Origin: Candidatus Thorarchaeota archaeon
GTDB lineage: Archaea; Asgardarchaeota; Thorarchaeia; Thorarchaeales; Thorarchaeaceae
Reading direction: 5' to 3'
Assembly: GCA_003345555.1 (NCBI GenBank)
Contig: PRDJ01000035.1
Span: 30,001 to 62,000 of the forward strand
DNA: 32,000 nt
The position numbers and the translations under genes are program-made. The notes below the pieces were generated by a model that was not told the origin of the DNA, searched no databases, and saw nothing but the letters and a program-made list of their open reading frames with translations. Position 1 is the first letter of the stretch. Each line of letters opens with the position of its first letter. This document shows, in pieces, positions 1 to 30,578 of this stretch.

Positions 1-1225
1 TGACAGTAGCTCCTCCCAGACCATCTGGAGCAAGCTCAAGATCGCTTTCCGGAGGCGCAATTGTAATATGAGGACCGGGCTTCTCGAACATGAGCTTGCC
101 AGTTAGGTTCCTCGAGGAGTTGTTGATCACAGTGATAGGTAAGGTAGTCTTCCCGGATTGTAGTACACGACATTCTCTCCATCTCGTCTGAATCTCGGCG
201 ACCGGCTTCACTCTCAGCCCCGTACGCAGCGTCGACTCCTGTCCGTTAATCTTCAACTTCGTAACAATCGAAGGCGCCTTGATGTACTGGCGGAATGCAG
301 GAGCATCCGGTGAAAGGTTGAAGGGAACGGACCATGTGAATGTTTTCTTGGCCTTTACTCGGGCGGTAGTCTGAGGGTTTGAGTCAAAATGCAGACTCTT
401 GAAGCCGTCCAAAGCAACGCTGAGGTCTATGTCCTTAGTTGTCCCGTTCTCGAACTTGAGTTCGTAGACCGAGGGGATTCCACAAAGGGTGAGATGTTGG
501 CTCACGAGTGCCTTCACCACAAGGCGGCCTTCGGCCGTCACTCGCTCTATGCCAGTGATAGCTCTAGCCAAACGATCTACAGTGACGTGCAGACTATTCT
601 TGCCGTTTTCGAAGCCATACGGGTAGATTGCCATTCCATGTTCTGTGTAGTCGTCTGGAGCTTGATTCAGCTCTCTTCGCTGCATGCCGTACCATGCACT
701 TCGGTCGGGGTTCGTGGTAAAGAAGGGAGTGCACAAGGGGTGTCGGAGAATCTCGGGAATATAGCTCTGCATTTCCACTCCCTGACCCTCCGGGTTCCAC
801 ATGAGACCCATCTTCTTGTAGAGCGGTACTGCTCTAAGGTTTCCTGCCCAGGTGTTCAGGTCGACTCTGGTATACCCTTTCTGTATGGCGATTTCAAAGC
901 ATTTCAGTAGAAGGTGCTTTCCCACTTTCTTGTTCAACGCTTCAGGGCTCACGCCCAGGGTTCCGACATAGGCAGCTTCGGTATCCCTCCAGTGTGAAAG
1001 AAGGGTCACTGACCCGACGGGGCGGTGGGTTGTCTTGTCAATTGCTATGAGAATCGCAAGAGCTCGCATTGACTCGTATTGCTTGACGACTCTTTGAGCT
1101 GTGAACGGCACTCCCTGAGTGAAGCCTCCCAGCCACAGCGGATCCCAGCTGTTATACATTTCCGCTAGCGATTCTGCGTCTTCAGGCCTGTATTCTCGAA
1201 TCTCTGTTGTTAGTTCCTCGGGCAT
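1..1225 (-). CDS. Large GNAT-family N-acetyltransferase with long beta-rich C-terminal extension (runs off left edge, partial)
   Basis: Not in the ORF track. Manual translation from ATG at 1225 is open to position 1 (408 codons): MPEELTTEIREYRPEDAESLAEMYNSW...AYVGTLGVSPEALNKKVGKHLL...RVDLNTWAGNLRAVPLYKKMG. Contains GNAT motif A (V.P....K.VG..LL) and motif B (N..A..LY.K.G). Confidence 0.85.
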   Translation of the reverse strand, partial: MPEELTTEIREYRPEDAESLAEMYNSWDPLWLGGFTQGVPFTAQRVVKQYESMRALAILIAIDKTTHRPVGSVTLLSHWRDTEAAYVGTLGVSPEALNKKVGKHLLLKCFEIAIQKGYTRVDLNTWAGNLRAVPLYKKMGLMWNPEGQGVEMQSYIPEILRHPLCTPFFTTNPDRSAWYGMQRRELNQAPDDYTEHGMAIYPYGFENGKNSLHVTVDRLARAITGIERVTAEGRLVVKALVSQHLTLCGIPSVYELKFENGTTKDIDLSVALDGFKSLHFDSNPQTTARVKAKKTFTWSVPFNLSPDAPAFRQYIKAPSIVTKLKINGQESTLRTGLRVKPVAEIQTRWRECRVLQSGKTTLPITVINNSSRNLTGKLMFEKPGPHITIAPPESDLELAPDGLGGATV

Positions 1226-1373: not shown

Positions 1374-4340
1374 ATGACGGGCGAACCATTGACTGCACTG
1401 GTCTTAAGACGGTTCGCAAAGGAAGTCAGTGTCGTTGCTGTCATTGCAGCCGGATTCTATCTTGCTACTGTGTCTGCTTGGGATAGCTACCAAACGAACG
1501 TTGATTATCATGCCGTAGTGTCATTTCTCGCGATTTCGTGTGCGTCCGCCTCACTCTTCCAATCAAGGGAAAACCGCTCGCCTCTGACTGTTCTGTTGCT
1601 TTCGGCCTTTCTCTTCTCGGCCATTGTACACATGATTGGTTCCGCCGAGCATCTAGTTGGCGGCCCTTCTCTTATTCCGACTGAGACCCCCATAGACACT
1701 TGCCTCGAGTTGGTTGAGCTGGGCCTTTTTGGAATCACAATCCTTGCTGCTGTGGGTCTTGAACGCAGAGTCTCGGGAGCCTCCAGACATGCCCTCTACT
1801 CTCTTGCATTCTCGGTCACGTTTCTATCCTCTCTAGTGTTTACTGTGATCTGCTGGTTTGTTTGGTCTGGAGTTTGGCAAGTTCTCGTTGTGAGTTACTT
1901 GGCCGCACCGGTGGCTGTTATTACAATGACGCTATCTGGAGTGGTGCTCTTCAGGCGTGTCCCTTACCCGCATGTCACTGACAGATATCGCTTGTTTTTT
2001 GGTCCGGCTCTTTTTGCGCTTTCTGTGGTCCCGTTGATATTCTCGCTGGGGGAAGTAAGGGATCTGTGGGTCCTCTCAGCATTCCTGCAGATGGGCGCAT
2101 TCTTTATCCTATACTTGGCAATGGTGATGCCAGTTCTAAGGGGAATGAATCTTACACGGAGACGAGCCTATTCTATTGCCTACTCGATTTCACTTCTCGT
2201 AGTCGTGCCCTTCTTGGTAACGATATTAGTGATGGCACTTGCGCCAGGATGGACGTTGTTCGATTTTGGAGCATACGCGACATCGCAGATCGGAATTGCA
2301 GTAGTCTTTTGCGTGATGGCCCAACTCCTGTTGTTGTACTCAAGGAGGAGGCCGGATTGGGGCCATAATCCAATCATACTGCTTTTCCTTACCCAGGCGT
2401 TTGTTGAGTTAGTAGGGCTTCTGCTTACCGCAATCACGCCCATAGGAGCTACGTGGTCCTATGTGCCATACATTATAGGCAGTGGAACCGTAACAATCGG
2501 TCTCTTCTTAGCCATAAGGTGGACCACCAAGCCACCTGCACGAGAGAACCCAAGCGGTTCTTGGGTTCTTGCCTGTCTTGTACTAGTCATGCTCCTTTGC
2601 GCTATTGGAGCCGGAGTGGCATGGCTCGTTTTGATACCATATCCTTGGCTATCAGGTAGTCCCGTGGGGTCTGTGATTCTGCTGACCACGAACCTGGTCA
2701 ACGTCTTCGGATTCCTCTATCTCATCTTGATGCTACTAAAAACCTCAAAGACATTGTTTCCCGTGGAAACGAGAGCAGTCGGCTTCCTATCACTATGGAT
2801 TGGGCCGAACATTCTCAGGGCAACATTCCAGGCTTGGTCCGGGGGGTGGTGGGTTTCGGAGTTCATTCTGCTTCTGGGGATGCTAGCTGGTCCAGCCCTT
2901 CTCGGAGCGATGTACATGGAATCGTTTGCTCAGGCGGAAGAATCTCGAAAGAAGGCCACACTCTATGGGGACATACTGGTGCACGATATTGGCAACTATC
3001 ACCAAGCCATACTTAATGCTCTGGAGCTGCTTGAAACCCCAGGTCTTCCTTCGGACATCAGCGAACGGGCAAGGTCAGAAGCTCTTCTTGCCCTAGCTCA
3101 GGCCTCGCAGCTTGCTGGCAACGTGAGACAACTTGCAAGAGCCGATGTGTCTCGAAGAATGGAGCTGGCTCCTGTCGATCTAGTCAGTTGCATCACAGAC
3201 GCCATGAATCAGGCGGCGGCAAATGCTCCAGAACTGGAATCTCACCTTCTCTTCAATCACAATGAACGGTTCTTCGTTGATGCGAACAGCCTTCTCACGG
3301 ATTTGTTTGTCAATCTTTTCCGCAATGCAGCCCAGCATTCTCCCGCCCGAAAGCGAATCGATGTCGAAATTACGCCTACGGCTTTGCGGAGCAAGGATGC
3401 ATGGTCAGTTCGCATATGTGACTATGGCAGTGGTATAGATCCAGAAACAAAAAAGAGGCTATTCAGTCGGTTCATGGAAGGTGCATCCGGCACCGGTCTT
3501 GGCTTGTCAGTAGTGCGGACGCTGACAGAGTTGTTTGAAGGGCAAATCGTTGTAGAGGACAGGGTGCTTGGTTCATATCGAGAAGGATCCGTTTTCACCA
3601 TTACGTTGCCCGCCTCTGTTTCCGCGGCACTTCTCGGGATCAGCATGAGAGGTGGCCTCGAAAGAGCCATGCATGCGGCAATAACGGGACTGTACCCGAT
3701 CATAATTGTGGGGCAAACAAACCAGGTCCCGTTTGCGATTAGTTTCCTCAAAGAGATTGCGTCTCACTTGAAGGAAGTTCAAGCAGGTTACGAGAGCCCA
3801 CTTTCGACTCAATCTCTAGGCAAGTTTGAGATTACTGGTACGACGCAATTGGTGGACAGCAACCTTCCCTCTGCCTTCTTAGTCATTGACTTGACGAGAC
3901 AGCACAGTGAGGGTGGCGCAGCATGCAGGTATTTCTCTCGGATTCTCGAGAAGACACGAGTAGCATCTTATCGCTCTCTGCTGTCGATGATTGACAGAGA
4001 GATTCCTAAGATAGTGAATGCTGCAACGGAGCTTGCACGAATTCTCTCTCTTGACCGGGAGAGCCGCGATCCACATCTGGCCGTCTGGAAGGGCAAGTTT
4101 AACGATGACGAGAAGGATCTGGTCTATGATATCGTCTTAGGGCGAACACACTTAGGCCACGTTCTCAGAGAAGCCGTCAGACGCAATCCATCCTCGGTCG
4201 TAGCAGGCGCTGATGAACGGTTGATTCTTGTGGAAGGCAGAGTGCTGCCCCCTTCTGAGCTGGGACCAAATGAAGCAAGGGACATCGAGAAGAACCTGAC
4301 TGCCGTTCTTGGTATCATCGGGTCTGAAGTGCCTTCCTAG
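1374..4340 (+). CDS. Multi-pass membrane sensor histidine kinase (~16 TM, HisKA, HATPase_c) with C-terminal DENN/folliculin-like domain
   Basis: About 16 hydrophobic segments in the first ~520 aa. H-box LVHDIGNYHQ (His at 2982), N-box LFVNLFRNAAQH, G1 DYGSGI, F-box LFSRF, G2 GTGLGL, then ~230 aa extra domain. The kinase call is strong; the DENN call is inference. Confidence 0.9.
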   Translation: MTGEPLTALVLRRFAKEVSVVAVIAAGFYLATVSAWDSYQTNVDYHAVVSFLAISCASASLFQSRENRSPLTVLLLSAFLFSAIVHMIGSAEHLVGGPSLIPTETPIDTCLELVELGLFGITILAAVGLERRVSGASRHALYSLAFSVTFLSSLVFTVICWFVWSGVWQVLVVSYLAAPVAVITMTLSGVVLFRRVPYPHVTDRYRLFFGPALFALSVVPLIFSLGEVRDLWVLSAFLQMGAFFILYLAMVMPVLRGMNLTRRRAYSIAYSISLLVVVPFLVTILVMALAPGWTLFDFGAYATSQIGIAVVFCVMAQLLLLYSRRRPDWGHNPIILLFLTQAFVELVGLLLTAITPIGATWSYVPYIIGSGTVTIGLFLAIRWTTKPPARENPSGSWVLACLVLVMLLCAIGAGVAWLVLIPYPWLSGSPVGSVILLTTNLVNVFGFLYLILMLLKTSKTLFPVETRAVGFLSLWIGPNILRATFQAWSGGWWVSEFILLLGMLAGPALLGAMYMESFAQAEESRKKATLYGDILVHDIGNYHQAILNALELLETPGLPSDISERARSEALLALAQASQLAGNVRQLARADVSRRMELAPVDLVSCITDAMNQAAANAPELESHLLFNHNERFFVDANSLLTDLFVNLFRNAAQHSPARKRIDVEITPTALRSKDAWSVRICDYGSGIDPETKKRLFSRFMEGASGTGLGLSVVRTLTELFEGQIVVEDRVLGSYREGSVFTITLPASVSAALLGISMRGGLERAMHAAITGLYPIIIVGQTNQVPFAISFLKEIASHLKEVQAGYESPLSTQSLGKFEITGTTQLVDSNLPSAFLVIDLTRQHSEGGAACRYFSRILEKTRVASYRSLLSMIDREIPKIVNAATELARILSLDRESRDPHLAVWKGKFNDDEKDLVYDIVLGRTHLGHVLREAVRRNPSSVVAGADERLILVEGRVLPPSELGPNEARDIEKNLTAVLGIIGSEVPS

Positions 4341-4721
4341 TCGAGTACTCTCTGCCACCGGTCGAAAGAATGTGCACCGGACTCGGTTTCTTTTTCCACA
4401 ATCAGACAAAGAAAACGAGTGCACGTTTGGACTTCTTTGCAGCAAAGGCTGCTGTGACTCCGTGTCACTGGAAGCCACCGCAACCATTATTGGCATCGAG
4501 TGACATGAGCAATCCGCAACGTCCGCTCTTCTTTTCAAAAGATAGGACGGTCGTGGGGAAGTGATTCCACGTGACTTGGCCATCTCGGTGTTTGTCTGGT
4601 ATCGGCTCCGCCATCGGCAATGAGCAGTCTCCGAGCCGGGGGTACTGCCAAGGTAGGTTCACTTCGCTGCCATCAAGGGACAGCAACAGTTATTGACCCC
4701 AAGAACTGTCTCAGTTCAGAG

Positions 4722-7115
4722 ATGCCTGCGAAGAAGTACTACACAGCGTGCTCACTGAACTGCCCAGACATATGCGCGTTCGTGGTTCAAGTAGAGGGCG
4801 GTCGCATTGTCAGACTTGAGGGTGACAGGAACCATCCATACACATTGGGCAGATGCTGTCCAAAGGGTTATGCCCATGTGCTCAGAATGTATTCGCCCGA
4901 CAGGATATTGTACCCTCAGCGGCGTCAGGCTGACGGTACCTTCAAGAGAATCGCTTGGAATGATGCGCTCGACGAGATTGCTGTCGATATTGACGATGCT
5001 CGCAGGAAGTTCGGTGCGCAGTCTGTGGGCATATACTGCGGCTCGGGAAATGATGGGCTAGCCCCTAAGTATGCCAGCAGATTTGCGAACACGCTTGGCT
5101 GCAGAATGATTCCGGGGATTGTCGAAATCTGTTTCGAAGGTGCGTACGAGGGTGCTCGGTTCAATGTCGGCCCTTTTCCTCCTCACGAGCTAAGCGACTG
5201 GGCGAACTCGCGATGTATTGTGGTATGGGGTACGAACAAGTTCGAATCCAGCATTCACTCGAAGAGAGTCATCAAAGAAGCGACCGATCACGGCGCGAGA
5301 CTGATTGTCATAGACCCTCGCAAGACTCCACTCGCAAAGATAGCTGACATCTACACAACCATTAGACCAGGGACTGACGGAGCACTTGCTCTTGGAATTG
5401 CGAATGAGATAATCAAGAGAGACCTGTATGATCACGAGTTTGTCGATAGATACGTTGTCGGCTTCGAGGAGTACAAGCGCAGAGTGGCTGAATACGACAA
5501 GAGGACCGTGAGCGAGATAACTTGGGTGGATGCCAACACAATTGAAGCCATAGCTCACACATTTGCCGTTCACGGACCCGGTCTCTTAATGACAGCTCCT
5601 GCTGGGATGAATCACTATACGAATGGAACTTGGGCCGCGAGGGCAGTGCATAGTCTTCTTGCAATATGCGGCTACTTGGGTGTTTCAGGAGGCGGTTTTC
5701 AGTATCTCTCATCCGATCGCGGTCCCTTCCAAAGCTCTTCGATTACGCTTGCTGACATGCTTCCAAGTTCAGTCAGACCTGTTGTCGAGTCGGGAACGCA
5801 TATTCCGGAATACGTGCTGAGTCATGAGGAATCACCTCTCAAGGTGTTCATCATTCAGGCGGCAAGTCCTATTACTCAGTGGCCGAATACGAAGAAGACT
5901 AGGGCGGCACTTGAGCGAATTCCTCTCAAGGTCTGTATCGATATCGAGATGACCGACACAGCCCGGTTGTGTGACATCGTCCTCCCCGCGACAACATTGT
6001 TCGAACATCATAACTTAATGCACAGCGAACTTCACAGGATTGTCCAATATGCACCGAAGATTGTGGAGCCACCGGGCGAGGCAAGGCATGAGCTGGAAAT
6101 CTGGAAAGGAATCGCAGAGAAGCTCGGGCTTGGCAAGTTCTTCCGACTAACAGAGCTTGATGCGATAAAGCTTGCACTGGGAGGTCATGATTGTGAAGGG
6201 ATTACGCTCGATGAACTTAAGCGGCATCCGGGCGGCATGAGAACTAGGAGTCCGGCTATCCCATTCGCAGATCGCCACTTTCTCACGCCATCAGGCAAAG
6301 TCGAGCTGTATTCCAAAACGTTGGCGAATTTGGGCTATGACCCTTTGCCGTACCACCAGGAGCCAGCTGAAAGCCCTGTATCCACGCCTGAGATTTTCAG
6401 AAACTACCCACTAATCATGATTTCTGGTAGGCTACGGAACCGATTGCACTCACAGTACACTACCGTGGAAGTCGGAGCTGAGGCCAAGGCCTATTCTGAA
6501 TGTACAACTTGTCAGAAGTGTGTCAAAGACTGCAAGGACGAGGCAATATCCCTACAGTCACCCAGCATCGAGATGATTCGCCGGGTTTCTAGCGAGAATC
6601 CAGAGACGCGTGCCAAGATGCGTGAAAAGCTAAGTGAGAGTGTGAAAGGACTTGCCATCACTGGCTCAGAAATAGTGATAGCTATTCCCAACAGCATCAC
6701 TGGACTCCAAGTCCCCATATGGGACCCGGTCAAGTGCATAGGGTGCAGAGAGTGTAATCTGGACATCTGTCCTTTCAAGGTCGTGACGGAACCAATTAGA
6801 ATGCCCTCGATGCTCCAGACCCCTACGCATCGAACGTTCCTGAGGATGAACCCGGTTGCTGCAGAGCGGCTCGGCCTCTCTGATGGAGACTCAGTCCGCG
6901 TGGAATCCATCAGAGGGGCAATCGAGGGTATCCAGCTTGAATTGACAGAAGACATCGATTCCAGGGTCGTGTGGGCATCCGACGGTTGGTGGGAGAGAGA
7001 CGGCAACATTAACCTCCTGACCGATGACAAACACACGGCGTTCGGACACACGCCGGGCTTCAACTCGGTTCTTGTGCGAGTCTCTAGGGTCGAGCACGGT
7101 GCACGTCAGCTCTAG
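4722..7115 (+). CDS. Cytoplasmic molybdopterin (Mo/W-bisPGD, DMSO reductase family) oxidoreductase with inserted 2[4Fe-4S] ferredoxin
   Basis: N-terminal CSLNCPDIC...RCCPKG Fe-S motif; VVWGTN, VIDPRKT, PGTDGALA, DIVLPAT and RLHSQ...MNP.AA.RLGL..GD.V motifs. No Tat signal. Start placed at ATG 4722 (MPAKKYYTAC) rather than 4620, because the Fe-S motif normally lies a few residues from the N-terminus. Confidence 0.9.
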   Translation: MPAKKYYTACSLNCPDICAFVVQVEGGRIVRLEGDRNHPYTLGRCCPKGYAHVLRMYSPDRILYPQRRQADGTFKRIAWNDALDEIAVDIDDARRKFGAQSVGIYCGSGNDGLAPKYASRFANTLGCRMIPGIVEICFEGAYEGARFNVGPFPPHELSDWANSRCIVVWGTNKFESSIHSKRVIKEATDHGARLIVIDPRKTPLAKIADIYTTIRPGTDGALALGIANEIIKRDLYDHEFVDRYVVGFEEYKRRVAEYDKRTVSEITWVDANTIEAIAHTFAVHGPGLLMTAPAGMNHYTNGTWAARAVHSLLAICGYLGVSGGGFQYLSSDRGPFQSSSITLADMLPSSVRPVVESGTHIPEYVLSHEESPLKVFIIQAASPITQWPNTKKTRAALERIPLKVCIDIEMTDTARLCDIVLPATTLFEHHNLMHSELHRIVQYAPKIVEPPGEARHELEIWKGIAEKLGLGKFFRLTELDAIKLALGGHDCEGITLDELKRHPGGMRTRSPAIPFADRHFLTPSGKVELYSKTLANLGYDPLPYHQEPAESPVSTPEIFRNYPLIMISGRLRNRLHSQYTTVEVGAEAKAYSECTTCQKCVKDCKDEAISLQSPSIEMIRRVSSENPETRAKMREKLSESVKGLAITGSEIVIAIPNSITGLQVPIWDPVKCIGCRECNLDICPFKVVTEPIRMPSMLQTPTHRTFLRMNPVAAERLGLSDGDSVRVESIRGAIEGIQLELTEDIDSRVVWASDGWWERDGNINLLTDDKHTAFGHTPGFNSVLVRVSRVEHGARQL

Positions 7116-7145: not shown

Positions 7146-8420
7146 CTATGACCAGAATGGAACTATGATGAACATGTAGACAGTTGCAGTTGCAAGGTGT
7201 ATCAGACCCACCGTCATAGCCAGCTTTATGAATTCGGCCCATGAAATATGACTCTCATTCTCCTCGGCCAATGAGACAACGTACATGTTGGGTGCATCAC
7301 CAAAGGGTATTGTATAACCTCCCATGTTCACACCGGCCACGAGTGATGTTGCGACAATGGGGCTTCCTCCAGGGAATTCCGCGGCCACCGGGGCCATCAA
7401 TGCACCAACTGCAGTCGTATCTAGGATCCCTATTGCAAAGCCTGGTACCCATATGAAGACGAAAGCAGCAATGTACATGTTGCCACCGACAAGAGCAACC
7501 AATCCACCCACTAGGTCGGTGACAACGTTCGTGACCGACAGAGACGCGACGAGACCCAGAAGCCCAACCACAAAGAAAACAGTTTCCCAAGATAACTGCT
7601 GAAGGAGGTCCTTCGCTCTGTCGAATGATATCACCAGCAGTGCGGAGGCAACAAGAACCGCGACCATGGCCGATTCATTCGGGACAAGGATAAGCCCTGC
7701 CATGAGAACGCCCAAGGTGAGTATCGAGAGGTAGAAGTCAAAGCGCGACTTGATCATTACTCTTGGGTCAACTTGGAAGAGTTCGCTTGTCTCGTCGAAC
7801 TTGCCCGGCACCAAGACATCCTTGTAGTAGTTTAGCAGAAACACAATTGTCACAAGCAATAGAATCACTGATAGAGGCATGAGGATGACGAACATTGACC
7901 CAACATCGAGATTGGCGAGGCGAACAATCAGTAAGTTCGGGATGCTACCAATAGGTGTCGGGAGGGAGCCTAGGTCTGCCACTATGATTTCTCCGATTAA
8001 GAATGGCCTGAAATCGATTCCGAGACCACGACAAATCTCAACCGTGAACGTGGCCATTATGATGATTGTCGGGAGAGGAGGAATGAAAGGTGACATGACA
8101 AAAACAATGGTCATGAACACGAGGAAGACTTTGCGAGGGTCGCCTCTCGTACGTTTCGCCAGAATAAGGGCCGTATACTGAAACATGCCGGAGGAACCCA
8201 CGACCGATATTATGATCATCATTGCCATGACAAACAGTATCGTATCCCAGTTCATGGCATTCAGCATCTCAACGAATCCATACCCACCCACTGCATACAA
8301 CACAGCCGCTGCGAGACCCATCGAGAAGAGCACTACTGCCGTGTCGTCGAATTTCTCGATTAACAGCACTACGAGTGTGACAATGAATATAATCAGACAA
8401 ATAATACCTGCAATCTCCAA
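7146..8420 (-). CDS. ArsB/NhaD (IT superfamily, P-protein/SLC13-like) anion permease, paralog 1
   Basis: ~11-12 TM; WDTILF..AMMIII...SSGMF, PIGSIPNLLI and PFGDAPN motifs. TTG start aligns with the N-terminus of paralog 2 (IAGIICLIIF). Confidence 0.85.
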   Translation of the reverse strand: MEIAGIICLIIFIVTLVVLLIEKFDDTAVVLFSMGLAAAVLYAVGGYGFVEMLNAMNWDTILFVMAMMIIISVVGSSGMFQYTALILAKRTRGDPRKVFLVFMTIVFVMSPFIPPLPTIIIMATFTVEICRGLGIDFRPFLIGEIIVADLGSLPTPIGSIPNLLIVRLANLDVGSMFVILMPLSVILLLVTIVFLLNYYKDVLVPGKFDETSELFQVDPRVMIKSRFDFYLSILTLGVLMAGLILVPNESAMVAVLVASALLVISFDRAKDLLQQLSWETVFFVVGLLGLVASLSVTNVVTDLVGGLVALVGGNMYIAAFVFIWVPGFAIGILDTTAVGALMAPVAAEFPGGSPIVATSLVAGVNMGGYTIPFGDAPNMYVVSLAEENESHISWAEFIKLAMTVGLIHLATATVYMFIIVPFWS

Positions 8421-8648: not shown

Positions 8649-9929
8649 TCAAACCAGCGCGGCTACCGCAAAAAGATAGGCTGTCGATATTGCCAGATGG
8701 ACCAACCCGAGCGGCGTGACGGCTTTCGTGAAATCCATCCATGAAATCGGCCCACGGTTCTTCTCGGCTAAGTCCCGAAGATACATGTTAGGGGCATCTC
8801 CAAACGGGATGACATACACTGAGAAGTTCAATCCGGCAACCATTGAGATGGGCACTATTCTGTTCAACGATGCGAACTCCACACTCATGGGCGCAAGAAA
8901 GGCTGCTATAGGGATAGTGTCAAACGCAGACATTACAAATCCGGGCAGCCATATCATCACCAAGATGGCGATGAATACGTTGTTGCCCACGACGGCAGTC
9001 ATTGCTGCCACGAGATCTGTGGAGACGCCTGTCACTTGCAGTGCTGCGACAATTCCGAATAGGCCCACAATGAAAAAGACCGTGTTCCAAGACAGCTGGT
9101 TCAACAGAACCTTAGCTCTCTGGAACGAAATCACCAGCAGTCCTCCGGCAACAACGAGAGCCACGGTCACAGACTCTGTAGGGACGAGTACCAGTCCTGT
9201 TATCAGTACTGCAAGCGCAATAGCTGAGACAAAAAAGTCGAGTCTCGAGCGTATCATGAGTCTTGGCTCTATATCAAAGAGATGGCTGGCTGCAGCGCCT
9301 GGAAGCTGTGCGAAGACCTGTCGGTAGTACCTGAGGAAGTACCAAATTGTCACTCCCAGAAGAAGTAATGACAATGGGAACAGAGTGACGAACATGAGGC
9401 CGATGTTCATTTCGGTGAGGGACACGACAATCATGTTTGGAATTGATCCTATCGGACTTGGTATGGAGGCAGAGTTAGCTACAACAGCCTCTGAGAGCAA
9501 GTATGGTCTGAAATCGATTCCAAGGGAGTTGCATACTTCCGCGGTGAAGGCACCTATTATCAAAATGGTCGGCAGGGGTTGCAGCACGAGCGATACTACA
9601 AATACAAACCCCATGAGAACCATGAATAATCTCCTTGGCTCCCCTCGGGTCCAGCGAGCAAGAACGAGGGCCATATACTGAAACATGCCCGAAGAACCTA
9701 GGACGGATATGATGATCATCATCGCCGCTATGAAAAGAACGGTGTCCCAGTAGATACTACCTAGCATGGCTGTGAAAGCTATGTTGTTGAAGGTATAAAG
9801 CACCAGAGCACATAGTCCCAACGAGAAAAGTGCAACAGCTGTTTCATCAAGTCTGCCAAGCAGTATGACCAGTAAAGTCCCGACGAATATAATCAGGCAG
9901 ATTATCCCGGCTATGTCCATGTCAATCAC
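8649..9929 (-). CDS. ArsB/NhaD-like anion permease, paralog 2 (tandem duplicate)
   Basis: Colinear with 7146-8420 over the full length, with shared blocks SSGMFQY, GIDFRP, PIGSIPN, MI(R/K)SR.DF and IPFGDAPNMY. Confidence 0.85.
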   Translation of the reverse strand: MIDMDIAGIICLIIFVGTLLVILLGRLDETAVALFSLGLCALVLYTFNNIAFTAMLGSIYWDTVLFIAAMMIIISVLGSSGMFQYMALVLARWTRGEPRRLFMVLMGFVFVVSLVLQPLPTILIIGAFTAEVCNSLGIDFRPYLLSEAVVANSASIPSPIGSIPNMIVVSLTEMNIGLMFVTLFPLSLLLLGVTIWYFLRYYRQVFAQLPGAAASHLFDIEPRLMIRSRLDFFVSAIALAVLITGLVLVPTESVTVALVVAGGLLVISFQRAKVLLNQLSWNTVFFIVGLFGIVAALQVTGVSTDLVAAMTAVVGNNVFIAILVMIWLPGFVMSAFDTIPIAAFLAPMSVEFASLNRIVPISMVAGLNFSVYVIPFGDAPNMYLRDLAEKNRGPISWMDFTKAVTPLGLVHLAISTAYLFAVAALV

Positions 9930-23164: not shown

Positions 23165-23749
23165 TCAGCCCACGAACAGGTCACTTTCTCCACTTTCGGC
23201 CAGCTTCATCATTCGCAGCAGCTCTGTGAATGTATGTTGTATATTCTCACCTGTCTTAGCTGATGTCTCGATAAAGTAGGCCGGCACATTGAGCTTGGCT
23301 TTGAAATACTCCGCAAACTTCCGGCCTTCGTCAGGAGTCACACTGTCCTTTGCCGGGGTTCGTGGTCGGAGGTCCACTTTGTTACCTACTATGACGGTGG
23401 GCGGCAACGGCCCCATGTTGCGGTAGGCTTCCACGAGCCATTTGGAAGCGTTCTCGAATGATCTTCGGTCGACCACAGAGTACACCAAGATGATTCCATT
23501 GCAGCCATGATAGTAGTGGCCTCTGACTTTCTCGAATGTAGGTTGCCCGGCCAAATCCCATATTATGAACTTCACGACTTCGTCCTCGAAGAGTATTCGC
23601 TTTGTCGCAAGGTCAACTCCTATGGTTGCGATATGACCCTCGATGAAGTCCTCTCCTAGGTAATTGCGCCGCATGCTGGTCTTGCCTACGGCACCATCTC
23701 CTATGAGAACTGCCTTCAGAATCCTGCTGCCGTCGTCTTGGTCCTTCAT
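23165..23749 (-). CDS. Rab-like small GTPase (eukaryotic signature protein)
   Basis: G1 GDGAVGKTS, switch I ATIGVD, G3 WDLAGQ, G4 GNKVD, G5 ETSAK; no C-terminal prenylation cysteines. Confidence 0.95.
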   Translation of the reverse strand: MKDQDDGSRILKAVLIGDGAVGKTSMRRNYLGEDFIEGHIATIGVDLATKRILFEDEVVKFIIWDLAGQPTFEKVRGHYYHGCNGIILVYSVVDRRSFENASKWLVEAYRNMGPLPPTVIVGNKVDLRPRTPAKDSVTPDEGRKFAEYFKAKLNVPAYFIETSAKTGENIQHTFTELLRMMKLAESGESDLFVG

Positions 23750-25239: not shown

Positions 25240-26532
25240 CTAGTGGAGAAGCAACGTCAGCATCAGAATCCATCCAGTGCCAATGACCATCATCAGCAGC
25301 GCTATTGGCATTGCCGCTTTCGCAAAACCCCGCATCCCTATCGGATTCTCTTCAGCTTCAGATAATGCGAGGGCGATTACGTTCGCCGGAGAGCCTATTG
25401 GTAGAATAAAGGCGCCGACATTGACGCCAAACACAAGCGCAAGAGGAGGCATTGGACCCGCGGTTGCAGCCTCAACAGCCAATGGGGCAAGTAGAGCCGC
25501 TATTGGCACGTTATCGATTACTGACGATAGCAGGCCCGGAATCCAAATCATGAAGAGCGTGACACTGACTGCTCCGCCGCTGATGAATGCGTCTGCCCAG
25601 TTGGCTATGTCCGCGAGTACGCCAGTCGCCTCAAGTGCGGCGACAATCCCAAAAATCCCTATTACGAAGAACACAGTGCCCCACCCAACCTCGCGCAAAA
25701 CCCTGTCCACATCGTGCTCCGTCAATAGGAGCATGATTGCCGCGATTGTTATCGACACTAAGCTTGCTTCCAACCCCTCGGCAACGCCTACTGTGAAAGC
25801 CAATATGAGGGCAATCATCGCTATGATGGACATGTAGAACTCAATTCTCGAACGAATGAGAGTCGTCGGGTCAATCTTGAACAGTTCTTCTGCTGTGGCC
25901 TTGTTGCTTGCAGTTAGGGAGTTTCTATAGAAGCGACGGAGCAAAGGCAGCGATACAATGAGGAGAATGAAAGACAGAGGCATCAAGGTAACAAACTGGA
26001 ATCCCGGGTTGATTCCTGTTGCAGTCGCTACAACTAGATTCGGCACGTCACCCACGACGGAAGGTATAGAAGCGAAGTTTGCGACTATGGCCTCGGAAAC
26101 AAGGAAGGCCTTGATGTCGAGGTCTAGTGCCCTGCACAACTCAATCGTAATTGGCCCGACTATTAGCATCGTGGATGTTGTGTCGAAGAATAGGGAGATG
26201 AAAAACACGAAAACCAAGAATGTCGTAAACAATCGAGGTGGGTTGCCGCCGCTAGGGAGGGCCATCCTGAGGGCAATATACTGATACATGCCCGAGGCAC
26301 GAGATATGCCAACAATAATCATCTGACCCGTTATGAATAACACAGTGTACCATCCAATGCGTTCAGTCAACGCTTGGAATGAGCTCACGTGTGCTGCCCA
26401 GAGAATCAAAGCGACAATCCCCATACCCGTAAGCGACATTGCAGTCCTGTTGACTCTCTCACTTGTTATTGCACTGTAGGTAACAATGAACACTAATACG
26501 ACAAGTCCGCCGACTAGATCCATAGGATGCAT
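25240..26532 (-). CDS. ArsB/NhaD-like anion permease, paralog 3 (more divergent)
   Basis: SGMYQYIA, FFDTTSTM, VGDVPNLVV, SSVIDNVP and PIGSPANV motifs; ~12 TM. Confidence 0.85.
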   Translation of the reverse strand: MHPMDLVGGLVVLVFIVTYSAITSERVNRTAMSLTGMGIVALILWAAHVSSFQALTERIGWYTVLFITGQMIIVGISRASGMYQYIALRMALPSGGNPPRLFTTFLVFVFFISLFFDTTSTMLIVGPITIELCRALDLDIKAFLVSEAIVANFASIPSVVGDVPNLVVATATGINPGFQFVTLMPLSFILLIVSLPLLRRFYRNSLTASNKATAEELFKIDPTTLIRSRIEFYMSIIAMIALILAFTVGVAEGLEASLVSITIAAIMLLLTEHDVDRVLREVGWGTVFFVIGIFGIVAALEATGVLADIANWADAFISGGAVSVTLFMIWIPGLLSSVIDNVPIAALLAPLAVEAATAGPMPPLALVFGVNVGAFILPIGSPANVIALALSEAEENPIGMRGFAKAAMPIALLMMVIGTGWILMLTLLLH

Positions 26533-28476: not shown

Positions 28477-28733
28477 TTATCTACGTGACAAAGACGAGTA
28501 CCCTAGCTTGAATCAGGCTTTATTGACTGCTTTTCTTACACAAAACACTTTCTGCGGTAAGGCCTTTCTCGATGGCACCGAGTGCCGTCAAGCCATCCCT
28601 TCTCCAATATGACGCGACTTGTTCGTTATAGACCTACCCGCCGCAAGCACAACAGACAAGTACGCTTGCGATAATTGGTCTTGGCGCATCATTTCACTTG
28701 AGATTCTCAGTATGCGCCGAGGTTCTCAGACAA

Positions 28734-30578
28734 ATGAAGAGTCGGAGTAAGCCCCCCAGCACTTCTGGCACCAAGACGCAGGAGGAGATTCTGCGATACC
28801 ACGCCCTCATTGATAACATGAATGAAGGATTCTGTGTCGTTGACCTCGACTCCAAGATAGTTTACGTGAACAAACGTTTCTGTGGAATGTTCGGGTATAC
28901 CACGGAAGACATGTTTGGTCGGGACGTTCATGAGTTCCTAGACAAACGCAACAGTGGCATATTCGACAAGCACAACAAGAAGAGGGCAAGGGGTCTTCCA
29001 TCGCAATATGAACTGGAGTGGATCACGAAGACCGGTAGAGTGCTTCCGACGCTTGTGTCGGGTGCTCCTCTCGTTGATACGCAAGGTGTTCAACGTGGCT
29101 CGTTTGCAGTTGTCTGTGACTTGACGGAACGTCGAAAGGTGGAAGATGCATCGAAGGCGTCTGAGGCTAAGTATAGGGCTCTAGCAGAGGAGATGACTCA
29201 GGGGCTCGTTATCGTAAAGGATGACAGGTATGTCTACGCAAACAAGGCGTTCGCGGAGATGCTCGGTTATTCGCCAAAGGAGATAGTTGACATGTCCTCG
29301 AGTAAGGCTTGGTCTCTCGTACAGCCTGAGGACCAGGGTATCTTGCGTCAGTATGGAGCGGACCGCCGAGCAGGCAAGAAAGCTCCATCTCACTACAGAT
29401 ATCGCTTAGTTGCACGCAACGGGTCGACTCACTGGGTGGAGGCGTTTGTTACTGAAACTGATTTCGGAGGAAGCCCTGCGTTGCAGGTGTTGCTGATTGA
29501 TGTAACAGAGCGAGTGGAAAGAGACGAAGCTTTTCTTGCTTCAGAGGCGAAATATCGTGCTCTGGCCGAACAGTCAAGCCAAGGAATCATGATAATAGGT
29601 GACGAAGGATTTGCTTACATCAACAAGGCATTCGCCCAGATGGTGGGATACTCTGTTGACGAACTAATGAGAAAGAACATGATTGAGATATGGGACTTGA
29701 TCCATCCCGAAGATCAGCCCGTCGTAATGACGCAAATTCAGAACCTCTTCGCACGAAGGGCCGTGCCGCCTAGGTATCAATACCGTCTAGTTCGCAAGGA
29801 CGGTGAGATATGCTGGGTTGAAGCATTCTCAGGCCCAATTCAATATGAGGGCAAGCAGGCAATCCAGACCATGATTGTGGACGTGACCGAGCGATTGAGA
29901 GTCGAGAGAGCAACAGGCGTCACGAAGGATAGGGCGTCGTTCTACTTGGATGTAATGGGGCATGATTTGAAGAATCAGCTACAGGTTGTTGTCAATAGTG
30001 CGGCACTGTTGCGTATTGCACAAGATGACAGCCGGAAGTCCTCGCTTTTGGAGGTCATTGAGAATGCTGTTCAGAGATGTTCTAGGCTTATAGAGGAGGT
30101 CCGAGCGACAGAACAGCTAATGAGCATCCCCTTGGCAGAGCGGCCGTTGAATGTCGCTTTGAAGGGGTGTGTCCAAGCTATCTCCAGCCGTGTCACAGAT
30201 GCGGTGTTCGAGGCAGTCTATGAAGTGGATGATGCCTGGATCTACGCGGACGGCTATCTTGAGCTGCTGCTTTCCAACATACTCGTGAATGCGGTTGAGC
30301 ACAACCCGAGTTCGGACAAGCATGTTTGGGTCGGACTGAAGGACGACGGTCAGTTCTATGTGGTCTCCATCTCAGACAACGGACCCGGTATTCCTGATTC
30401 GTCCAAGGCCATTCTCTTCGATCCTGCTAGGCGGTTTGGAGGAATGGGTATCCACCAGTCAAATCAGATTATTGAGAAATACAGGGGTAAGATCGACATC
30501 GTGGACAGAGTAGTGGGACATCAAGACATGGGAGCTGAATTCAGAATATGGTTCCCGAAAGCAGTGAGAAGCAGCTAG
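28734..30578 (+). CDS. Cytoplasmic histidine kinase with three PAS/PAC domains
   Basis: Three PAS repeats ending CDLTERR, IDVTER and VDVTER; H-box MGHDLKNQLQ; NILVNAVEH; DNGPGIP; short GGMGI G2 box. Start probably ATG 28734 (track gives TTG 28698). Confidence 0.92.
   Translation: MKSRSKPPSTSGTKTQEEILRYHALIDNMNEGFCVVDLDSKIVYVNKRFCGMFGYTTEDMFGRDVHEFLDKRNSGIFDKHNKKRARGLPSQYELEWITKTGRVLPTLVSGAPLVDTQGVQRGSFAVVCDLTERRKVEDASKASEAKYRALAEEMTQGLVIVKDDRYVYANKAFAEMLGYSPKEIVDMSSSKAWSLVQPEDQGILRQYGADRRAGKKAPSHYRYRLVARNGSTHWVEAFVTETDFGGSPALQVLLIDVTERVERDEAFLASEAKYRALAEQSSQGIMIIGDEGFAYINKAFAQMVGYSVDELMRKNMIEIWDLIHPEDQPVVMTQIQNLFARRAVPPRYQYRLVRKDGEICWVEAFSGPIQYEGKQAIQTMIVDVTERLRVERATGVTKDRASFYLDVMGHDLKNQLQVVVNSAALLRIAQDDSRKSSLLEVIENAVQRCSRLIEEVRATEQLMSIPLAERPLNVALKGCVQAISSRVTDAVFEAVYEVDDAWIYADGYLELLLSNILVNAVEHNPSSDKHVWVGLKDDGQFYVVSISDNGPGIPDSSKAILFDPARRFGGMGIHQSNQIIEKYRGKIDIVDRVVGHQDMGAEFRIWFPKAVRSS

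Follow-up and report, generated by a model that had tools for sequence, protein, structure and literature searches.

Introduction

Eukaryotes rely on DENN modules as central regulators of their Rab, Arf and Rag GTPases. Here we describe a gene from a 32,000-nucleotide stretch of Candidatus Thorarchaeota archaeon DNA (assembly GCA_003345555.1, contig PRDJ01000035.1, positions 30,001 to 62,000 of the forward strand; hereafter the window), in which the reading frame of a sensor histidine kinase runs on into a C-terminal domain of predicted DENN fold. This domain makes up the last 231 aa of the protein and is called the tail below. The described systems closest to it are eukaryotic DENN proteins on the one hand and archaeal DENN and longin proteins on the other.

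In the DENN-family GTPase-activating proteins (GAPs) that a preprint describes, the longin subdomain carries the catalytic arginine, both in the complexes FLCN-FNIP, C9orf72-SMCR8 and GATOR1 and in the monomeric Avl9/DENND6A type, and the cDENN part binds the GTPase's switch regions in DENND1 and in a predicted Avl9 complex (preprint). According to the text of Liu et al. (10.1101/2020.10.19.343400), DENN-domain proteins occur in most Asgard lineages, where they include FLCN-like longin-DENN proteins and expanded sets of DENN paralogues with non-eukaryotic architectures; the same text describes an Asgard operon that combines a Roadblock protein, a Rab-like GTPase and a DENN protein, as well as NPRL2-like longin domains fused to two-component domains (their Fig. 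5c). Asgard longins of the FLCN/SMCR8 type with a conserved arginine finger are also on record (PMC12290439).

The protein described here resembles each of these systems in part. It shares its predicted fold with the C-terminus of folliculin (3V42; FLCN in 6NZD) and with SMCR8, C9orf72, DENND10 and FNIP2, but its tail is only ~10–13% identical to them, has no sequence-profile match to them, belongs to an archaeal host, and is preceded by a histidine kinase rather than by a longin domain, so that the protein lacks the arginine finger known from the longin GAPs. With the longin-DENN proteins of Asgard archaea (P0007, P0011, P0008, P0013, P0019 and an ORF at locus L018) it has detectable sequence homology, a first-helix motif and the DENN fold in common; those proteins, however, carry an N-terminal longin and none has a kinase. 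The fusions of Liu et al. follow, as far as the text tells, the same principle of placing a eukaryote-type GTPase-regulator domain in a two-component protein, but they carry the longin part, whereas the protein here carries the DENN part without a longin. Finally, hybrid histidine kinases likewise have an alpha/beta domain attached behind HATPase_c by a short linker; in those it is a receiver, and the tail is not.

A preliminary description of the window had read the tail as folliculin/DENN-like and had proposed that it bridges two-component sensing and small-GTPase signalling. Its statement that DENN-like domains have been reported in Asgard archaea is borne out by the text of Liu et al. The novelty that it implied was overstated, given the longin/two-component fusions and the non-eukaryotic Asgard DENN architectures described in that text. 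A kinase fused to a DENN domain without a longin finds no mention in the literature texts searched, a scope that covers the running text of Liu et al. and leaves aside its figures (e.g. Fig. 5b).

Results and discussion

The kinase-DENN fusion and its distribution

The fusion is genuine and restricted to one genus. Past the HATPase_c domain the frame continues for 241 further residues without a stop, and the tail (P0002) begins at position 3645, codon 758, the Met of 'MRGGLERAMH'; existing annotation of these proteins says only 'histidine kinase' or 'hypothetical'. The same ~230-aa tail stands behind the same kinase in P0003 (62–63% tail identity), P0004 (35–36%) and P0005 (40%), as well as in the fragment P0009 (85–86%), and full-length orthologues measure 996–1008 aa. 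These sequences were drawn from assemblies at NCBI, ENA, JGI and Logan; the contigs that carry them reach 916 kb. Each of the four species-level genomes of the host genus (g1) holds an open frame of 1001–1040 aa for the fusion, which gave no match at all in the 82 other genomes of the host family (f1) and was not found outside the genus among 400 Asgard genomes.

The preliminary description had allowed that the fusion could be an artefact, and had named its recurrence in other genomes as the check. That the frame lost a stop codon, suffered a frameshift or lies in a chimeric assembly now has almost no probability as an explanation: the frame is uninterrupted in four species and in contigs from all four sources, and both the length of the junction and the gene order around it are conserved, which together refute an assembly artefact. 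The ORF coordinates, the position of the phospho-acceptor His537 and the pattern of helices and strands given earlier proved correct by translation, alignment and structure prediction, respectively.

Predicted fold of the tail

We modelled the tail with AlphaFold2 from an alignment of nine sequences (A2), which gave a mean pLDDT of 87.8 and a pTM of 0.86. Secondary structure assigned to the model by DSSP comprises a first helix (residues 2–14), a strand (19–22), a second helix (27–39), four further strands (47–49, 63–66, 79–82 and 87–89), a run of helices (95–188), a hairpin and a last helix. The model was then compared by VIA-align with 48,161 PDB chains, with no prefilter. The six top chains are all DENN proteins, with Z falling from 11.1 to 8.8, and the seventh follows at Z 5.7. 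The best chain is 3v42_B, the C-terminus of folliculin (Z 11.1 over 161 residues, rmsd 3.4); DENND10 (Z 10.7), SMCR8 (10.2), DENND1A (9.1) and C9orf72 (8.8) are also among the six. The likeness to DENND1A/B, the Rab35 exchange factor (6EKK), concerns the DENN lobe, which aligns over 169 residues but with a poorer fit (rmsd 6.2), and DENND1 uses its longin lobe too. Foldseek retrieved FLCN, C9orf72/SMCR8 and DENND10 at probability 1.00 and TM ~0.5, and the nearest neighbours of the tail in a protein-language-model space are archaeal C9orf72-like, Folliculin_C/SMCR8_C, SPA/Avl9 and DENND11 clusters. Within the family the first helix, 'GLERAxHAxxTGL', is near-invariant, and Asp82 and Gly90-Gly91 are invariant.

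These predictions support the tail as a true DENN-fold domain, made up of cDENN and dDENN parts and closest to the C-terminus of folliculin. They agree with the order of elements on which the preliminary description had based its reading, a cDENN core followed by a helical dDENN, and the structural comparison that it had called for places folliculin, SMCR8, C9orf72 and DENND1A among the six best chains.

A diverged receiver or a P-loop-NTPase-like domain would be a very improbable identity for the tail. Its core does give weak matches to P-loop-like folds (Z 4–5.7 over 70–120 residues), among them the seventh chain, a small fold of this kind aligned to the alpha/beta core only; Foldseek also lists ChlI AAA+ chains, and an invariant Asp closes one of the beta-strands of the tail. 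The DENN chains, however, score 8.8–11.1 over 160–170 residues where the P-loop folds reach 5.7 at most, the ChlI alignments have an rmsd of ~14 Å and a TM of 0.3, and the sequence has no Walker A motif. As the preliminary description had held, the tail is not a receiver: it has no PF00072 match, and no CheY-like chain occurs among its 50 best structural matches. Both identities are excluded by the lead of the DENN chains in Z, the missing Walker A motif and the missing PF00072 match.

Relatives and origin of the tail

An exhaustive phmmer search over 1.84 billion representative proteins found three true relatives of the tail, and word-seeded searches added a few more. Free-standing relatives match it at E values of 1e-22 to 1e-11 and 21–31% identity; the nearest, P0007 and P0011, are 390 aa long and 28–31% identical to the tail. 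In the model of P0007, residues 1–135 form a longin domain (beta-beta-alpha-beta-beta-beta-alpha-alpha; Z up to 14.4 to the longins of TRAPP, CPLANE, Mon1-Ccz1 and VAMP7) and residues 143–318 a folliculin-like DENN domain (3v42_B, Z 12.5), and the whole protein aligns over ~300 residues to FLCN, SMCR8 and C9orf72. P0008 and two proteins of 'Promethearchaeota archaeon CR_4' (P0013 and P0019) are longer variants of this longin-DENN family; the N-terminus of P0008 has hydrophobic, probably membrane-spanning segments in addition to a longin-like region and the DENN domain. The first-helix motif is common to the kinase-fused and the longin-fused forms.

Since P0007 and P0011 model as a longin followed by DENN, the kinase stands where the longin (uDENN) domain sits in the canonical module. 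No longin/uDENN domain was found in the same polypeptide as the tail, upstream of which lie the membrane region and the kinase core. We infer that the tail descended from longin-DENN proteins of Asgard archaea and that the kinase took the place of the longin domain. Across the 400 Asgard genomes the DENN profile matches 71, always in ORFs of ~250–800 aa without a kinase. When the longin-DENN profile is run over the present genome, its DENN part matches the kinase alone, and its longin part matches four other ORFs.

The family varies in other ways as well. In genomes G116–G126 (family f20; e.g. G117:C39:184188-185000), ORFs of 767–795 aa each match the DENN profile twice and may thus hold tandem DENN domains, and there are 4–6 paralogues per genome. 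In CR_4 a CitMHS transporter (L038 12647-14104, plus strand) adjoins the two tandem paralogues P0013 and P0019 (560 and 593 aa), whose N-termini are longin-like by sequence; this adjacency may be coincidence. About 1 kb downstream of P0008 (JGI 3300042731) lies the gene for a 330-aa HATPase_c protein, a hint that kinases and the DENN family may adjoin elsewhere too. Two candidates were set aside: P0006 (2774 aa, 22 matched stretches) turned out to be a spurious match, a protein of Cna_B repeats, and P0010, which looked like a stand-alone DENN protein of 231 aa, is cut by the contig end, its frame being open to the first base of the contig.

The kinase part

HATPase_c, at residues 640–747, is the sole Pfam match in the whole protein; the Pfam HisKA model does not match it, and NCBIfam histidine-kinase models give partial, sub-threshold matches only. 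We aligned residues 500–800 with three orthologues and with a HisKA-positive PAS kinase encoded in the same window. Throughout this alignment the H-box keeps its H, D and N unchanged, and His537 coincides with the H-box of the PAS kinase; among the orthologues there is no variation in the N, G1 (DxGxG), F and G2 boxes. Because these boxes are conserved, the kinase looks functional as judged from its sequence. The membrane region ahead of it has MASE3/MASE4 clusters as its protein-language-model neighbours (score 0.95), so that the sensor is possibly MASE3/MASE4-like, which we treat as a lead only. Neither P0008 nor the CR_4 protein has an N-terminal region similar to this one. A locus search with the protein (P0001) returned only a match to the HATPase_c region in a Syntrophobacterales MAG, which is weak and irrelevant. 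The PAS kinase used in the alignment (28698-30578, plus strand; three PAS domains, HisKA and HATPase_c) is itself a second orphan sensor kinase, with no receiver nearby.

Response regulators

In gene order the kinase is an orphan. The preliminary description had set the lack of a response regulator in the window beside the presence of a Rab-like GTPase. The lack is a fact, and extends further than was stated: PF00072 receiver domains were found neither in the window nor anywhere in the assembly, whose completeness is 93.5% and which has nine HATPase_c matches. As evidence it is weak. Receiver matches occur in all 24 other genomes of the family surveyed, at 2–21 per genome, and the listed receivers of the congeners lie on other contigs or ~267 kb from the fusion gene. 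Missing contigs are thus the likely and simplest cause, real loss being the lesser option, and the lack of receivers therefore cannot serve to argue for the DENN tail as a substitute for a response regulator. On another contig of the genome (G000:C36, L031 9023-9937, plus strand) we noted a 304-aa protein with a TackOD1 domain (thaumarchaeal response-regulator output, E 7e-18); its N-terminal 150 aa are unassigned and not recognised as a receiver.

Proposed coupling to small GTPases

The genome encodes 16 matches to the Ras superfamily, 12 to Roadblock (LC7) and four that are longin-like, and some of the Roadblock/LC7 matches cluster with GTPases (e.g. C10:519-2403). We propose, tentatively and at something short of an even chance, that the tail is a DENN module which binds a partner and through which the kinase is coupled to this network of GTPases, Roadblock and longin proteins. 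The tail would then be a protein-interaction module rather than an enzyme and would tie the kinase to the small-GTPase machinery of the organism. Its cDENN face could bind the switch region of a GTPase, as in DENND1 and the predicted Avl9 complex; alternatively, the partner of the tail could be another longin, Roadblock or DENN protein. This contact would be gated by the state of the kinase, as an output, or the state of a GTPase would gate the kinase, as an input, and the kinase may signal through a conventional response regulator as well. In favour of the proposal stand the GTPase machinery of the genome, the published Asgard two-component proteins that contain eukaryote-like GTPase-regulator domains, and the published binding of cDENN to switch regions. 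A more specific form of the proposal, a direct coupling of two-component sensor and small GTPase, in which a membrane signal, sensed through the MASE-like domain and the state of the kinase, controls the recruitment or nucleotide exchange of a Rab/Arf/Rag-like GTPase at the membrane or a GTPase controls the kinase, we regard as rather unlikely.

The preliminary description had considered a GEF/GAP-like role. The tail holds the cDENN and dDENN parts, and neither the arginine finger of the longin-domain GAPs nor that of the Avl9-type monomeric DENN GAPs is present in a protein that has no longin domain. GAP activity by the tail alone would thus be unlikely, because the longin with its catalytic arginine is missing.

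Several observations weigh against the proposed coupling. In the folliculin and C9orf72 complexes the contacts with the GTPase come from the longin domains, the part that is missing here. None of the genes conserved next to the fusion encodes a GTPase, a Roadblock or a longin protein. Receiver matches number two, four and six in the three congeners that share the fusion, so that an ordinary phosphorelay output may also be open to the kinase. The assignment of the tail is itself indirect: no Pfam or NCBIfam model matches the tail or its relatives, HMM profiles of the family (A1, A5) searched against PDB sequences met no DENN chain, only chance matches (keratin, calcium channel), and the DENN models PF15019, PF16692 and PF02141 match nothing in the genome, in searches that had no valid positive control. 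No sequence profile reaches the curated DENN models or the DENN chains of the PDB, and membership of the superfamily therefore rests on predicted structure, together with language-model features. A bridge to small-GTPase signalling is nevertheless plausible, weakened as it is by the missing longin and by the lack of a conserved GTPase neighbour.

As the chief alternative, the tail could be an appendage with a structural or regulatory role in the kinase itself, namely a second dimer contact, an autoinhibitory domain or a domain that docks a response regulator or some other partner that is not a GTPase. It would then have no link to small GTPases, the DENN fold having been put to new use as a scaffold. 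Histidine kinases are dimers, which speaks for this possibility, as do the missing GTPase neighbour and the receiver domains of the congeners. So does the behaviour of the eukaryotic proteins: in folliculin-FNIP2 and C9orf72-SMCR8 the DENN domains mainly pair and scaffold and it is the longin domains that touch the GTPase, and DENND10 serves Commander as a scaffold subunit. The first helix, which is the best conserved motif of the tail, is however shared with longin-DENN relatives that have no kinase, and therefore points to a function independent of the kinase; we judge an appendage unlikely, if by no means far-fetched. Prediction of a complex of two tails gave a score of 0.36 against a mark of 0.42, and we do not use it as evidence either way.

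The tail could also be one half of a split module and pair in trans with a separate longin protein, so restoring a longin+DENN unit. The genome has four other matches to the longin part of the family profile and none to the DENN part outside the kinase, and two of the candidates, encoded side by side on contig C36 (G000:C36, L031 11739-12632 and 12847-14034, both on the plus strand), have sub-threshold TrmB/winged helix-turn-helix (wHTH) matches at their C-termini, which, with no receiver domain in the assembly, would offer a receiver-free route to transcription. This scenario is purely speculative, the Pfam scores for both wHTH and longin fall below the curated cut-offs, and the congeners do have receiver domains, so that we consider it improbable. 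Taken by themselves, the two adjacent ORFs, which are followed by a ParA/MinD-like ATPase, may be longin-DNA-binding fusions (Pfam scores all below cut-off).

Gene neighbourhood

Coordinates of the gene, its parts and selected neighbours are given in Table 1. A divergent gene for a GNAT protein (~1100 aa), the kinase-DENN gene, a molybdopterin oxidoreductase, two CitMHS transporters, an M29 peptidase and TauE form a conserved order. The window has three CitMHS transporters (7146-8420, 8649-9929 and 25240-26532, all on the minus strand), and the conserved block that follows the kinase-DENN gene includes two of these. At the P0004 locus (L013) the molybdopterin oxidoreductase overlaps the stop of the kinase by 4 nt. 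In the window its true start is probably the Met at ~4722, because of the conserved N-terminus (Fe4S4 domain from residue 38). At two other loci (L014 13209-13868 and L002 909-1547, both on the plus strand) a hydrophobic protein of 212–219 aa lies between the kinase-DENN gene and the oxidoreductase; it is likely a membrane protein, has no Pfam match and is 57% identical between the two loci. It is missing from L013 and from the window, where 4341 to ~4720 is non-coding.

The Rab-like GTPase noted in the preliminary description does exist, as a Ras-family gene, but no sign of a link to the kinase was found: it is one of the 16 Ras-superfamily matches, and over the ~19 kb between them lie unrelated transporters and enzymes on both strands. 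The loci of the free-standing relatives have no GTPase-related neighbour either.

Table 1. Parts of the kinase-DENN gene and selected neighbouring genes, in positions of the 32,000-nucleotide window.
Feature	Position	Strand	Basis
Sensor histidine kinase with C-terminal domain of predicted DENN fold, whole gene	1374..4340	+	988 aa, stop 4338-4340; ORF list and translation; orthologues
N-terminal integral-membrane sensor region, residues 1-515	1374..2918	+	Kyte-Doolittle, ~14 hydrophobic segments; no Pfam match
DHp / phospho-acceptor region, H-box 'HDIGNYHQ', His537 = codon 2982-2984	2931..3290	+	Alignment to the HisKA-positive PAS kinase of the window
HATPase_c, residues 640-747	3291..3614	+	PF02518, E 6.5e-20; six-frame match with same coordinates; N, G1 (DxGxG), F, G2 boxes
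Linker between kinase and DENN, 10 residues	3615..3644	+	Orthologue alignment over the junction: no stop, constant length
cDENN-like alpha/beta core, tail residues 1-105	3645..3959	+	AlphaFold2 model, VIA-align, invariant columns
Helical dDENN-like part, beta-hairpin and terminal helix, tail residues 106-231	3960..4337	+	DSSP of model; DENND10/DENND1A alignments reach model residue 203-210
GNAT-domain protein, start of large gene (~1100 aa in relatives), divergent upstream neighbour	2..1225	-	Pfam; synteny
Molybdopterin oxidoreductase, downstream neighbour	4620..7115	+	Pfam; synteny in L013, L014, L015, L016
Ras-family small GTPase	23165-23749	-	PF00071, E 1.7e-42

Significance

The fusion is known from one genus only, and its function is one that we infer. 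Within these bounds, a DENN domain covalently tied to a classical sensor kinase has a defined input, the kinase, and a defined location, the membrane, and the set of candidate partners is small (16 Ras-superfamily and 12 Roadblock matches in a genome of 2.3 Mb). It thereby becomes possible to test what the DENN lobe did ancestrally, before eukaryotes, apart from a longin partner. Beside the published longin fusions, the protein is a second way in which two-component signalling is linked to eukaryote-like GTPase regulators and, if the direct coupling to a small GTPase is true, would show a folliculin-type module wired onto phosphorelay signalling in a prokaryote.

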